Below are positions 1 to 3,000 of a stretch of DNA of 4,098 nt, piece after piece (the first letter of the stretch is position 1; every line of letters starts with the position of its first letter). Location: the IMG/VR virus record IMGVR_UViG_2690316345_000002. One strand, 5' to 3'. This DNA comes from a virus. Lineage: Duplodnaviria > Heunggongvirae > Uroviricota > Caudoviricetes. Position numbers: made by a program.

Positions 1-3000
1 CCCTCAAAAACGTAAGCCTCTACGCCACGAAGTAATCCTAAGTTATTGATTTTTTCGAAAACCACCATTGGGGGATTTCGGATCACACCTCGAACCGCCA
101 GTCGTTCAATGGATTGTTTCACCTTGTCATGACGACTTCCCACCAACTCAGCGATTTCAATGCTTGTCATTTTGATGACGTTGCTATTTATCAGCTCGTT
201 CATTGTCATGTCCTCTCATATTGAAAATTCAGCAATAAAAAACCCAGCCGAAGCTGGGTTTGTTAAGTTGTCAATTGTCAGTAGCGATGCAGTGAAGGCG
301 GCAATTCTTTGTTCTTAAGCCTTTCCCATGCCAGAAGGTTCGTTGGTCCGTCTGGCTCATTGATATCAACATCTCGTGTGTGATTAATTAAAACGCCCCT
401 CGCCCTCCCGATGATATACGAGAACTCATAGCCGTAGTCGTGGCATATGCCGGAATAGCCAGACTGAATCAGTTTTAATGCGGGATACAACTCACGGAAC
501 AATGCCTGTGAGCGGTTGGCATAATCCCACAGCCATACAAGGCTGTCTGTTTCTTTTGCGGAAAGCCCGTTGAGCTTCTTCTCTTGTTTGCCAGTATTTT
601 TCTCGCACTGGCTGAAATAGCAGTCTTCCAGTTTTTCGAACACATCCCACGCCTGATCAGTTTCGAGCATTTTTGCGTGACGGGCTGCGCCTCGTTCTGT
701 CCAGAGGATGAGGGAGCGGGCTTTCGGGGAAATTTGTAACCCTCTTAAAGATGGTTGCAAATTTTGTGAGTTACTTAAAGTAACCCGCAAAATTTTCAAC
801 TCATCACCAACAACCTTGAAAAAGTGTTTACCCTCAACAAAACGCTCGGAATTACGGGTGTAATTTACTTTGATGTTGTTGATCTCGGTACAGTAAAGCT
901 GTGCCAGTAACTCGGTAGTGATAACGGGAATTTGGTTGTGTGTAATTGGGGAAAGAGTTTCGACAGAAATCTGAGTGGCCATAACGATAACTCCGTACAT
1001 TTGGACATTATCGCCACCGTCAGGTGCTAATCATCATGGTGGCGAACTGTGCGGGGTTAGCACTACCGGGTACGGAAACCGGCGAGCCTTTCGGCTCCCC
1101 CACACAGCCCGCCATAAATCGCGAATGTGACTGTGCAAACGATATGAAAAAAGACGCGGGCGCGTCTCATATCGCTCCGTAAACATCCGGGGTGCTAATC
1201 CCGACGCCAGATTTTGCTGGCGCGTGAGGAATATAGCCCCGAATAAATCATCGCGTCAATCACCTTGTTTTCCTCGCACGATGTCTTAGCCACCGGATAT
1301 CCCACAGATGAGCCGTGTAGTTGAAGGTTTTTACGTCAGATTCTTTTGGGATTGGCTTGCGTTTATTTCTGGAGCGTTTCGTTGGAAGGTATTTGCAGTT
1401 TTCGCAGATGATGTCGGTGATACTTCTTCGCTGTCGCCTCATGCCGCCCTTCTGACGCCCTGCCCGATCGCCATCAATGCCGCTTTGGATACGGTAGTAA
1501 ACATCCGTCGAGGACTGATGAACGGTCGCCAAATCAGCAGCATGGAACCTTTGCTGTTTCCCTTCTTCTCCAGCCCTGTCGATGGTTCGATAAAATTAAT
1601 CCGTCCATCAGTGATAATGCGAACTTCGTCAACACTCTCCAGAGCCTTGCTGAACCATCCGACTGACATATCCTCTGGCACAAGCATCACTACCGTCTGT
1701 CGCTGTTGTATGCACTGCTCAGCGGCTTTTTCCACCCACGGCCTGATATTGCTGTACGGTGGGTTATTCCAGATTGCACCGTGGCTTACCCACTCAGAAT
1801 TGAGCGCGTCGTCGACCTCAGTTAGCCAGTGAGCGCACAGAGCGTTTTTGTCGCTCGCAGCTGAATCCAGCCAGAATCCAAACTCAATATCCAGTGCATC
1901 AAAAAGCCAAAGCGGCGTTTGCCAGCAGTCCTTGTCGTGTGCTGGTGTATTTGATTTGATAGTCATGCAGCCCTACCTTTTCGTTGTGACCATTCATACT
2001 CTCGCCGGGAGTCATCACTCCACCGCACGTTGCGCTCTGAGCCGAACCAGAACATGATTTCGATAAGCTCAGTCATGTTGGCCTTTCGCATTTTGCTGGT
2101 ACGCACGCCAAGCATGACAACGCCACCGTCGATACCAGGCGCACTTCTTTGCTCCAGTTTTTTGGTCTTAAGCCACAGGGCAGTGAACAGGTCTTTCCAG
2201 TCTTCCGGCGCCAGCCGTTGACCATGCCATAGCACCTGACGCGAAACATCGTTCAGCATCGGCCACATGCGGTCATTCTGCGCTTTGCTGCGCTTGGGTT
2301 CTTTAACGTGGACTTCGTGGGGTGACTTGTCGTCGATGGGTAGTGAGAGAATGGCGTCTATGGCGTTATTTCTGATTGCTTCGTTGCGAAGCAGAAAGGT
2401 TTGCTTCATCTCCTGCTCTCCGGTTCCATTTTTCAGCCGCCGCAGCAACTGATGGTGCCCATGCCCCCCCTGGCTTCACAGAGGTCACATTCTGCATAGC
2501 CCCACACATCAATATTTATTCCGGCCTCAACCCACAGACGAGCATTACCGCCGCAAAACGGACATTCTTTTAGCTTTGGCTGGGTTAATGATAGGTCGCT
2601 CATGCTCACTCCTTCACTTAAAATCCAGACTCCGGATAATTCTGTTGCGCTGAAACTCATTGTTGAGTTTGAACAACCGTCGAAGAACACGGTCACGCGG
2701 ATAGCGTCGTGCGGCAGGTGAATGCTCATACAACTCATCAAGCGGCAAACTGAACGATGAACGATACCGATACCAACGCACCAACTCTTCACGAAAATTA
2801 GCCCTGACAAGCTCAGCTATCGTACTCATTTCTTAAAACCTCCTCAAACGCATTCTGACGCATTTTTCATTCTCGCTGCTTATCGGCTGCCTTGCACGTG
2901 CTTACCTCACCACAGAGCGATTGTGATGCCTTAAAAGCGATTTATTGAAGTGATATTTGCTTAATCGAAATTCTTTTCTTTGATTCCTGCGGCCCTGATG

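Follow-up and report, generated by a model that had tools for sequence, protein, structure and literature searches.

A probable C4/IsrK-gated antirepressor cassette flanked by ninE and roi in the nin region of a lambdoid Escherichia coli prophage

RESULTS

ninE, ant and the 5′ end of roi

The window, by which we mean the whole 4,098-nt stretch of the IMG/VR record IMGVR_UViG_2690316345_000002 that was analysed, carries ninE, ant and the 5′ end of roi in tandem on its minus strand, and all features described below lie on that strand. ninE (1442..1260; Pfam NinE, E 8e-44) is the upstream neighbour of ant and the final gene of the ordinary nin backbone ahead of the cassette. It is followed, after a gap of 277 nt (1259..983), by ant (982..278), which encodes a 234-aa antirepressor according to Pfam, phrog_377 and PGAP; in E. 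coli O55:H7, PGAP gives an equal-length CDS of 705 nt the name 'phage antirepressor Ant'. The ATG of ant is at 982, and a GGAG Shine-Dalgarno (SD) sequence (994..991) is located 8 nt 5′ of it. An alternative start at the ATG at 1000, which would give a 240-aa product, was rejected because it has no SD sequence and because PGAP and the homologues start at 982.

Residues 12-105 of Ant (nt 949..668) match ORF6N (Pfam PF10543; E 3.6e-19, 69.3 bits against a cut-off of 27.8, profile positions 3-86 of 86), and residues 135-206 (nt 580..365) match P22_AR_C (Pfam; E 1.2e-23, 83.4 bits against a cut-off of 22.4). Ant also matches phrog_377, 'anti-repressor Ant', at 9e-84 and is 88.9% identical to VT2-Sakai Ant. 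Its residues 1-133 are 65% identical to AnrP of Gifsy-1, and its last 104 residues (131-234) share 84.6% identity with P22 Ant. On these identities, Ant is evidently a chimera, with an AnrP-like N-terminal half joined to a P22-Ant-like C-terminal half. The C-terminal part had been called unrecognisable in the sequence-only reading, a claim that the domain search overturns. P22_AR_N was not matched in Ant by Pfam, and ORF6N stands in its place. Searches of NCBIfam with Ant, the Roi fragment and full-length Roi returned zero matches, and Ant and Roi had no PDB sequence match at E up to 0.01.

Sixty-seven codons of roi lie in the window (203..1), the gene being open at the window edge; it was identified from phrog_63 and the annotation of relatives, and the name roi is annotated in VT2-Sakai, 933W and other records. 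PGAP places the start at 203, and the VT2-Sakai annotation uses the ATG at 209. Over these 67 residues, identity is 99% with a protein of strain CFSAN027343 that is 240 aa long, has a Rha-like N-terminus and carries a KilAC (ANT) domain in its C-terminal part (PF03374, 113.8 bits), KilAC itself falling beyond the window. Assignment of this gene to the Rha family is sub-threshold: Phage_pRha (PF09669, cut-off 29.9 bits) gives 22.4 bits for the Roi fragment and, over profile positions 1-90 of 91, 26.8 bits for the full relative, and BLASTP against a bona fide Rha protein aligned only the motif TSxxIAExxGxRHDxV (E 1e-4). The ORFs are intact and 98-100% conserved across many genomes.

The terminator between ant and roi

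The ant–roi intergenic region measures 74 nt (277..204), or 68 nt if roi starts at the ATG at 209, with 16 nt ahead of a hairpin and approximately 24-30 nt past its U-run; the previous estimate of a terminator plus about 35 nt was roughly right. The hairpin belongs to an intrinsic terminator (261..233) made of a 9-bp stem (261..240), a UUCG loop and a U-run. Its 90-nt region folds at −21.6 kcal/mol (z = −4.5), and 0 of 200 shuffled sequences fold as well. The terminator is exactly conserved in six loci examined, and 23 of its bases are identical to the annotated P22 ant terminator (t_ant), of which it is a homologue. Moreover, where roi follows ninF in loci that have no ant, the terminator is absent and homology begins at the roi start codon. 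Because of the P22 match and this absence, we assign the terminator to the 3′ end of the ant cassette, with which, rather than with roi, it evidently travels. A role for it as a special regulator of the Rha-like gene is not upheld by this assignment. Over the same terminator, Rfam also listed rsmX and istR at 21-22 bits, below their cut-offs (56 and 45); both hits were discarded as terminator-driven noise.

The promoter scan detected no sigma-70-like site between ant and roi. A perfect TTGACA hexamer at 274..269, immediately ahead of the terminator, was considered as part of a roi promoter and rejected: there is no acceptable −10 at 16-18 nt, the scan is silent there, and P22 does not have this TTGACA. 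The tandem of an ORF6N gene and a downstream gene with a UUCG terminator between them, the absence of a promoter in the gap and the resulting requirement that roi be transcribed through the terminator all agree with the sequence-only reading, and the two antirepressor-type genes that it saw in the nin region are ant and roi.

Three terminator-like sites are present on the coding strand (3284..3261, 1168..1151 and 261..240), and two of the three belong to the inserted cassette and not to the lambda backbone. In VT2-Sakai, the N gene is annotated, and N, cI, cro, cII, O and P upstream lie on one strand with roi, ninG, ninH, Q and stx2 downstream; relatives continue as roi-ninG-ninH-Q or roi-ninG-phosphatase-Q. 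By the standard N-dependent logic of nin regions, with N antitermination carried over from homologues, roi, ninG, ninH and Q are all expected to need read-through. N-modified transcription from pR, passing the three intrinsic terminators, would then be the sole route to expression of roi, which has no promoter of its own. In the nin region of lambda, too, the pR transcript meets intrinsic terminators (tR2-tR4) on its way from P to Q. The pair does lie downstream of ninE, as had been noted, but it occupies only the position of ninF and does not replace ninF to ninI, given that relatives retain ninG-ninH or ninG-phosphatase.

Promoter, IsrK, C4 and leader upstream of ant

The main regulatory content of the locus, which the sequence-only reading overlooked, is in the ninE–ant gap (1259..983), immediately beyond the stretch given there, where a promoter, an IsrK sRNA with its terminator, a C4 antisense RNA and the C4 target sites follow one another. 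The putative PisrK-like cassette promoter (1259..1230) has the −35 element TTGACG (1259..1254) immediately 3′ of the ninE stop codon, an 18-nt spacer and the −10 element TATATT (1235..1230), with 10 of 12 consensus matches. The promoter block is kept in 15 loci, and the −10 region is the same as that of the experimentally validated PisrK of Gifsy-1 (PMC4825925). From 1223, 7 nt past the −10 hexamer, the IsrK model covers a 77-nt IsrK-family sRNA (1223..1147; Rfam RF01394, full length 1-77, 74.4 bits against a cut-off of 50), for which the terminator scan gave an intrinsic terminator stem at 1168..1151. In addition, Rfam reports c4-a1b1 at 1236..1184 (RF03163, 49.8 bits against a cut-off of 46.7).

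Downstream of IsrK is a C4-type antisense RNA (1119..1035; Rfam RF01695, full length 1-87, 78.8 bits against a cut-off of 45). Its predicted structure is a long stem around two hairpins (MFE −49 kcal/mol), in which two recognition segments are both unpaired, namely B′, UUCCGUAC, in a hairpin loop (1077..1070) and A′, GUGCUAA, in a 3′ bulge (1063..1057). Segment A′ is complementary to UUAGCAC in IsrK (decoy site A1, 1198..1192) and, over 7 nt, to UUAGCAC in the ant leader (1034..983; site A2, 1030..1024). Segment B′ is complementary to UACGGAG in IsrK (decoy site B1, 1181..1175) and, over 8 nt, to GUACGGAG in the leader (site B2, 998..991), which includes the GGAG of the ant SD sequence. In the other 14 loci, the site equivalent to B2 overlaps the SD sequence or sits close upstream. 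These complementarities come from scanning the unpaired core of C4 without gaps; whole-molecule RNAduplex calculations opened all internal structure and were uninformative.

A conserved AUG inside C4 (1115) opens a leader ORF of 31 aa (1115..1020) at the position of orf45 in Gifsy-1. Elsewhere, ORFs from this AUG range from 3 to 48 aa with varying stops, and an AUGA overlap is found only in Gifsy-1, for which our procedure recovers orf45 with its 45 aa and the overlap. Since the stop codon in the window falls 40 nt 5′ of the ant AUG, this leader ORF is probably not a functional coupling ORF. Rfam gave no isrJ match anywhere in the window with E values up to 1 allowed; the Gifsy-1 copy scores 100 bits. 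Pfam found neither arc nor mnt in the window, where the region upstream of ant carries IsrK and C4 instead.

Covariation of C4 with its decoy and target sites

Across the 15 loci, the C4 segments, the IsrK sites and the leader sites show a three-way covariation. The 14 loci other than the window contain at least 9 different A-site alleles and at least 12 B-site alleles, each with its match in the C4 of the same locus. Cognate combinations have a mean longest Watson-Crick run of 6.3-8.1 nt, against 3.6-4.4 nt for non-cognate ones, and cross-reaction among loci is confined to pairs with the same alleles. Site A of Aeromonas LPM4 was missed by the fixed-zone test because the leader there is longer and places the site at leader positions 37-43. 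The window and Stx2a 981509 have site A in common and differ in site B; the same holds for VT2-Sakai compared with Gifsy-1, phi419 and TL-2011b. Judged from such combinations, the alleles at sites A and B evidently recombine independently. The module is widespread: among 5,426 complete E. coli genomes, 2,597 carry it, in up to six copies each and about 4,035 copies altogether.

DISCUSSION

The identities of the parts, the complementarities with their covariation, the boundaries of the cassette and the absence of a roi promoter are observed directly at the locus. The arrangement is probably that of a Stx-phage-like lambdoid prophage of E. coli into whose nin region a self-contained antirepressor cassette, gated by C4 and IsrK, has been inserted between ninE and roi. 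According to this model, the cassette promoter (1259..1230) would fire and most transcripts would end at the IsrK terminator as 77-nt IsrK, and a minority would pass it into C4, ant and the P22-type terminator (261..233). The leader would fold, or be processed, into the C4 antisense RNA, whose two exposed segments would pair with the two sites in the ant leader. Because one of these sites lies on the ant SD sequence, ant would be transcribed yet translationally silent. Abundant IsrK, bearing a second copy of both sites, would compete for the C4 segments and release ant translation, and Ant would most likely inactivate the prophage repressor, leading to faster derepression and induction.

For promoter activity, partial read-through, C4 processing, activation by IsrK, repressor binding and N antitermination, this model draws on homologues. 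In Gifsy-1, PisrK drives transcription of anrP without translation, IsrK supplied in trans raises anrP translation about 140-fold, a processed RNA of ~80 nt, STnc1160, derives from the C4 region, and AnrP acts as an inducer of the prophage (PMC4825925). In P22, Ant acts by binding the repressor and inactivating it, as summarised in PMC3064807. For Phi24B, knock-out of ant left a pR′ reporter with 27-31% of its wild-type activity after norfloxacin, superinfection was unaffected and ant was non-essential (PMC3064807). By analogy with P22 Ant, Gifsy-1 AnrP and Phi24B Ant, inactivation of a phage repressor is the most likely function of Ant in the window. Of the two roles suggested previously for the pair, modulation of the lysogeny switch is in accordance with induction by AnrP and with the drop in the pR′ reporter, and the lack of a superinfection effect in the Phi24B knock-out speaks against the other. 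The phenotype of the Phi24B knock-out is modest, and the C4 complementarities are short (7-8 nt); both observations count against the model.

Among known systems, Stx phages are the closest in layout: VT2-Sakai, 933W, Phi24B and 2851 have the same genes in the same order and position (ninE, ant, roi, ninG, ninH, Q), and their roi 5′ end and terminator are 99% identical to the window at the nucleotide level. The ant-roi pair has been reported as a preserved context in Stx phages (PMC3430580). Differences concern details. VT2-Sakai Ant has 244 aa and window Ant 234 aa, with a 10-residue deletion in ORF6N; the specificity alleles are UUGGCGU/GAAACC in VT2-Sakai and UUAGCAC/GUACGGAG in the window; and orf34, annotated across the ant start in VT2-Sakai, is not present in the window. 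The isrK-orf45-anrP-isrJ locus of Gifsy-1 in Salmonella shares with the window a PisrK-type promoter, an IsrK terminator of the partly read-through type, a leader homologous to C4 and an antirepressor of the ORF6N type, with 65% identity in the N-terminal half. However, the Gifsy-1 locus sits after Q and the window cassette before roi, the AUGA overlap of orf45 with the antirepressor start has no counterpart in the window, the C-terminal half of AnrP is different, and the Gifsy-1 locus carries the IsrJ sRNA at its 3′ end, where the window has the P22-type terminator.

The immI regions of P1/P7 and P22 each share one part of the design. In P1/P7 (c4-icd-ant), as in the window, an RNA of the C4 family lies between upstream decoys and downstream targets, one of them on a ribosome-binding site. 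In P1, the occluded site is the ribosome-binding site of icd, and ant is controlled via coupling and Rho. In the window, by contrast, the site lies on the SD sequence of ant itself, there is no icd-like coupled ORF, and the upstream sites are part of a separately terminated sRNA, IsrK, unlike those of P1. Allele-specific C4 recognition underlies heteroimmunity, a principle summarised in PMC12197685 and PMC7313666. P22 immI (mnt-arc-ant) shares the C-terminal 104 residues of Ant and the 23 terminator bases with the window. In contrast, P22 Ant begins with P22_AR_N where window Ant has ORF6N, and control in P22 is exerted by Arc, Mnt and the sar antisense RNA, none of which is found in the window.

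A cis-acting switch of the Gifsy-1 type would use the same parts differently. The IsrK-C4-ant read-through mRNA would fold into an inactive form, IsrK in trans would open the ribosome-binding site of the leader ORF, and ribosomes on that ORF would expose ant or re-initiate at it, C4 not being a free antisense regulator. This is the authors' experimentally supported model, with orf45 coupling, for the closest characterised homologue (PMC4825925), and the conserved AUG inside C4 that it needs is present in the window at 1115. Moreover, constitutive expression of the orf45/STnc1160 region in Gifsy-1 enhanced, and did not relieve, IsrK toxicity (PMC4825925), which fits poorly with a simple scheme in which C4 represses and IsrK titrates. 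However, the leader ORF of the window has only 31 aa and ends 40 nt short of the ant AUG, its counterparts vary from 3 to 48 aa with an AUGA overlap in Gifsy-1 only, the region is conserved in nucleotide but not in amino-acid sequence (PMC4825925), and the leader site that pairs with C4 falls on the ant SD sequence itself. Hence, we regard a switch of this kind as unlikely for the window and prefer gating by C4 and IsrK.

Two further explanations are much weaker. If ant and roi encoded two independent antirepressor-type DNA-binding regulators, the hairpin could be a dedicated Rha/Roi attenuator and the ORF6N protein could carry a novel C-terminal effector or sensor; a tandem of antirepressor-like and Rha-like genes does recur as distantly as APSE-7, and no promoter lies between ant and roi. 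This explanation is very improbable, as the C-terminal domain is P22_AR_C with 84.6% identity to P22 Ant, the hairpin corresponds to the ant terminator of P22 and is not present in loci where ninF precedes roi, and the requirement for read-through is shared by ninG, ninH and Q.

Iyer, Koonin and Aravind are said to have described the ORF6N, KilA-N, Bro-N and Rha modules in 2002 as DNA-binding, which would be compatible with Ant and Roi not being antirepressors at all. They might instead act in control of lytic growth, as HK022 Roi, which PMC3430580 describes only as implicated in lytic growth, or in host takeover or inter-phage exclusion, or the cassette might be inert in a cryptic prophage; the non-essential Phi24B ant, whose knock-out had no superinfection effect (PMC3064807), points the same way. 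We give this little credence, because close relatives of both halves of Ant (P22 Ant, Gifsy-1 AnrP, Phi24B Ant) have been shown to act as antirepressors or inducers and because the ORFs are intact and highly conserved.

The allele pairs at sites A and B may, as a tentative suggestion, form a combinatorial RNA 'address' by which the antirepressor cassettes of lambdoid prophages sharing a host would fall into cross-talk groups. If this possibility holds, IsrK would unlock, and C4 would silence, only those ant genes with the same allele pair, and RNA alleles would help to decide which prophages, including Stx phages, are co-induced in poly-lysogenic E. coli. The allele group of the window, which has no coupled leader ORF, would then be controlled by direct occlusion of the ant SD sequence. 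Allele diversity is in any case a cheap and testable handle on cross-talk between prophages.

The ant-roi pair has already been named and published, and its occurrence here is real but ordinary. Earlier work has described each element, from the genes and the two RNA families to the terminator and the control logic, and the locus carries little weight as a discovery. For studies of spontaneous or stress-driven induction of Stx prophages, our analysis suggests that ant should be treated as RNA-gated and allele-specific. The practical value lies in annotation: IsrK and C4 are unannotated in the RefSeq E. coli records examined, and several phage records place spurious small CDSs or 5′-extended 'Ant' CDSs over IsrK and C4.

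Regulatory RNAs between ninE and ant

The 277-nt non-coding gap between NinE (1442..1260) and the ORF of the antirepressor-type gene ant (982..278, 234 aa; all features described here are on the minus strand) contains three full-length Rfam matches above gathering score, which were missed by the sequence-only reading: c4-a1b1 targets (1236..1184; 49.8 bits, cut-off 46.7), IsrK (1223..1147; 74.4 bits, cut-off 50) and C4 antisense RNA (1119..1035; 78.8 bits, cut-off 45). Directly 3′ of the ninE stop codon lies a promoter-like site (1259..1230; TTGACG, 18 nt, TATATT) whose 3′ end is 7 nt upstream of IsrK +1, and a predicted terminator (1168..1151) is the 3′ hairpin of IsrK. 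Gifsy-1 isrK-orf45-anrP-isrJ and P1/P7 immI have this architecture, and in Gifsy-1 the Rfam matches for IsrK and C4 coincide exactly with the authors' isrK and "orf45"/STnc1160. There, PisrK yields an anrP transcript that is not translated, a fraction of the transcripts extends past the IsrK terminator, supplying IsrK in trans increases anrP translation ~140-fold, the C4 region yields a processed ~80-nt RNA, and AnrP induces the prophage (PMC4825925).

IsrK and C4 carry no annotation in the E. coli RefSeq records that were examined, where the matched region (window 983-1259) includes only a 'NinE family protein'. In several phage records, small hypothetical CDSs cover the RNAs (VT2-Sakai orf34, pPE4 ORF29/30, PhiR12_1 1500-1643, phi419 1576-1743); in others, the 'Ant' CDS is extended 5′ through them (Stx1_499, locus L010, 1264-2286; P27, L16).

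Predicted pairing of C4 with its target sites

C4 has two unpaired segments, each complementary to a site (A or B) that is present once in IsrK and once in the ant leader. For site A, C4 GUGCUAA (1063..1057) faces UUAGCAC in both IsrK (1198..1192) and the leader (1030..1024); for site B, C4 UUCCGUAC (1077..1070) faces UACGGAG in IsrK (1181..1175) and GUACGGAG in the leader (998..991), where the site includes the ant Shine-Dalgarno (SD) GGAG, 8 nt 5′ of the AUG. The comparison covered the window and 14 fetched loci from Stx phages, phage 2851, P27, TL-2011b, Hafnia, Aeromonas, APSE-7 and Gifsy-1. All 14 further loci carry IsrK and C4 in tandem 5′ of an antirepressor-type gene, and leader site B overlaps or sits close upstream of the antirepressor SD in 15/15 loci. 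Across the 15, site A occurs in at least 9 distinct 7-nt versions and site B in at least 12, and both target copies covary with the C4 segment, locus by locus. The longest Watson-Crick run averaged 6.3-8.1 nt for cognate and 3.6-4.4 nt for non-cognate combinations, with cross-reaction limited to loci having a common allele pair. Direct pairing between C4 and these sites, as predicted from sequence, thus has strong comparative support. Allele-specific C4 recognition is the logic of P1/P7 heteroimmunity (PMC12197685, PMC7313666), and the covarying sites of the window and its relatives follow the same logic.

Overlap coupling through a leader ORF was considered as another route to control of ant. 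Read from the conserved AUG inside C4 by a script that gives Gifsy-1 orf45 exactly, this ORF has 45 aa and an AUGA overlap in Gifsy-1, whereas in the window it has 31 aa and stops 40 nt before the ant AUG; coupling by overlap therefore cannot operate here. Lengths in other loci range from 3 to 48 aa, and such variation in length and stop indicates that the region is conserved as RNA and not as coding sequence. Direct occlusion of the ant SD would be the more economical reading for the window allele. Enhancement of IsrK toxicity by co-expression of the C4 region in Gifsy-1 (PMC4825925) is a caveat for a simple scheme in which C4 represses and IsrK titrates.

The ant cassette and its boundaries

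The ORF6N N-terminus proposed for Ant was correct (Pfam, 69.3 bits), and the C-terminus considered unrecognisable is, by domain search, P22_AR_C (E 1.2e-23). Residues 131-234 are 84.6% identical to the P22 Ant C-terminus and the N-terminal 133 residues 65% identical to Gifsy-1 AnrP, so that Ant is chimeric, each half resembling an antirepressor that has been studied experimentally; the N-domain of P22 Ant is P22_AR_N, not ORF6N. The Φ24B Ant homologue is 82% identical to P22 Ant over the last 104 residues (Fogg et al., PMC3064807). The ORF6N domain of the window Ant is 10 residues shorter than that of VT2-Sakai Ant (L002; 234 vs 244 aa), with Pfam spans of residues 12-105 (nt 668-949) and 12-115, respectively, and this indel falls where Gifsy-1 AnrP differs too.

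A strong terminator and a lack of room for a promoter had been noted between ant and roi, the next gene, and both were borne out: the hairpin (261..240) closes a UUCG loop with a 9-bp stem ahead of a U-run, 0/200 shuffles fold as well, and the interval holds no sigma-70-like site. The 3′ half of ant is 88% identical to P22 ant in nucleotides, and hairpin plus U-run, ACCCAGCTTCGGCTGGGTTTTTT, equals the annotated P22 ant terminator at 23/23 bases, with similarity decaying directly after. In HK140, mEpX1 and EC.P3, where roi follows ninF without ant, homology to the window starts at the roi start codon; hence, this terminator closes the ant cassette on its 3′ side and does not belong to roi. The cassette (1259..233), AnrP-like in its 5′ half and P22-like in its 3′ half, is moron-like: it is inserted at the ninF position and brings a promoter and a terminator of its own.

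As the sequence-only reading presumed, promoter-less roi requires transcription to cross this terminator, and ninG, ninH and Q behind it share the requirement, which is the classic N-dependence of the lambda nin region; VT2-Sakai has an N gene upstream. In the lysogen, the terminator would plausibly also keep transcription from the cassette promoter out of Q.

The ant–roi pair

The Rha-like N-terminus assigned to the roi product (first 67 codons, 203..1) stands as a sub-threshold likeness to Phage_pRha (22.4 bits for the fragment and 26.8 for a full-length relative, cut-off 29.9), and a bona fide Rha protein has only the N-terminal TSxxIAExxGxRHDxV motif in common with it. The full-length Roi relative, 99% identical over the shared 67 aa, ends in a KilAC/ANT domain (6e-33). 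The pair is already named: VT2-Sakai is annotated with `ant` ("similar to antirepressor of bacteriophage P22"), then `roi`, nin204 and nin68 homologues, Q and stx2, and PGAP uses "phage antirepressor Ant" and "phage antirepressor KilAC domain-containing protein". Ant followed by Roi is a preserved context across Stx phages; their Roi and HK022 Roi, the latter implicated in lytic growth, have the N-terminal 125 residues in common (Smith et al. 2012, PMC3430580). Deletion of Φ24B ant left superinfection unaffected and lowered pR'-lux after norfloxacin to 27-31% of wild type, partly restored by complementation (Fogg et al. 2011, PMC3064807).

Mosaic joints lie inside the roi N-terminus (window ~116-142, codons ~20-30). 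The match of the closest E. coli prophages begins at 116, and that of many Stx2a phages and 933W is confined to 277..136, so roi alleles have recombined just downstream of the conserved start.

Distribution of the module

The IsrK-C4 module occurs in 2,597/5,426 complete E. coli genomes (48%), as many as 6 times in one genome; the exact window allele was found in 16 records. N-terminal domains behind it are ORF6N (window, Gifsy-1), Bro-N (APSE-7, TL-2011b) or true Rha (Aeromonas LPM4), and APSE-7 keeps a tandem of IsrK, C4, a Bro-N protein and then a Rha-family protein. The C-terminal domain, terminator, gene pair and regulatory RNAs are all already known entities; what the sequence-only reading observed was confirmed, and its interpretation was partly right and overstated. 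The one modestly open angle is the tentative idea that cross-talk between prophages in the same host is organised by their two-site RNA alleles.

In P2-like Aeromonas phage LPM4 (L013, 1445-2297), the module lies among the tail genes, flanked by the tape-measure gene and gpU, and fronts a Rha-family gene (Phage_pRha 3e-29); its leader is longer, with site A moved to positions 37-43. In 'Actinobacillus phage vB_Apl-pPE4' (PP818812.1, L004, 1501-1777; recorded host Actinobacillus pleuropneumoniae), the IsrK-C4 leader is 97% identical to the window with the same specificity alleles, but the -35 region and upstream gene differ. This could reflect recent transfer of the cassette or a doubtful host assignment.

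Gene content of the window

All long ORFs are on the minus strand and, by Pfam, form an ordinary lambdoid nin region. P (4098..3597) and ren (3600..3310) are followed by a tR2-like terminator 3′ of ren (3284..3261; 8-bp stem, 6 GC pairs, then TTTTATTT), which occupies the lambda tR2 position. It is the third in the window, and thus the pR transcript crosses three terminators within 4 kb. Between ren and DUF7301 lies an acidic 97-aa ORF (2961-3254), without a Pfam match at E ≤ 0.01 and with a 279-nt 'hypothetical protein' CDS at its position in RefSeq and VT2-Sakai. A small Lar-like zinc-ribbon ORF (2433-2603; 25.9 bits, under the cut-off of 28.6) runs into the 5′-extended part of the NinB ORF (1963-2448), and in the PGAP annotation the two genes overlap by 44 nt; a Dam-type methyltransferase lies between NinB and NinE. 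The best matches are E. coli prophages (95-98% identity across ~4 kb) and many Stx1- and Stx2-converting phages.
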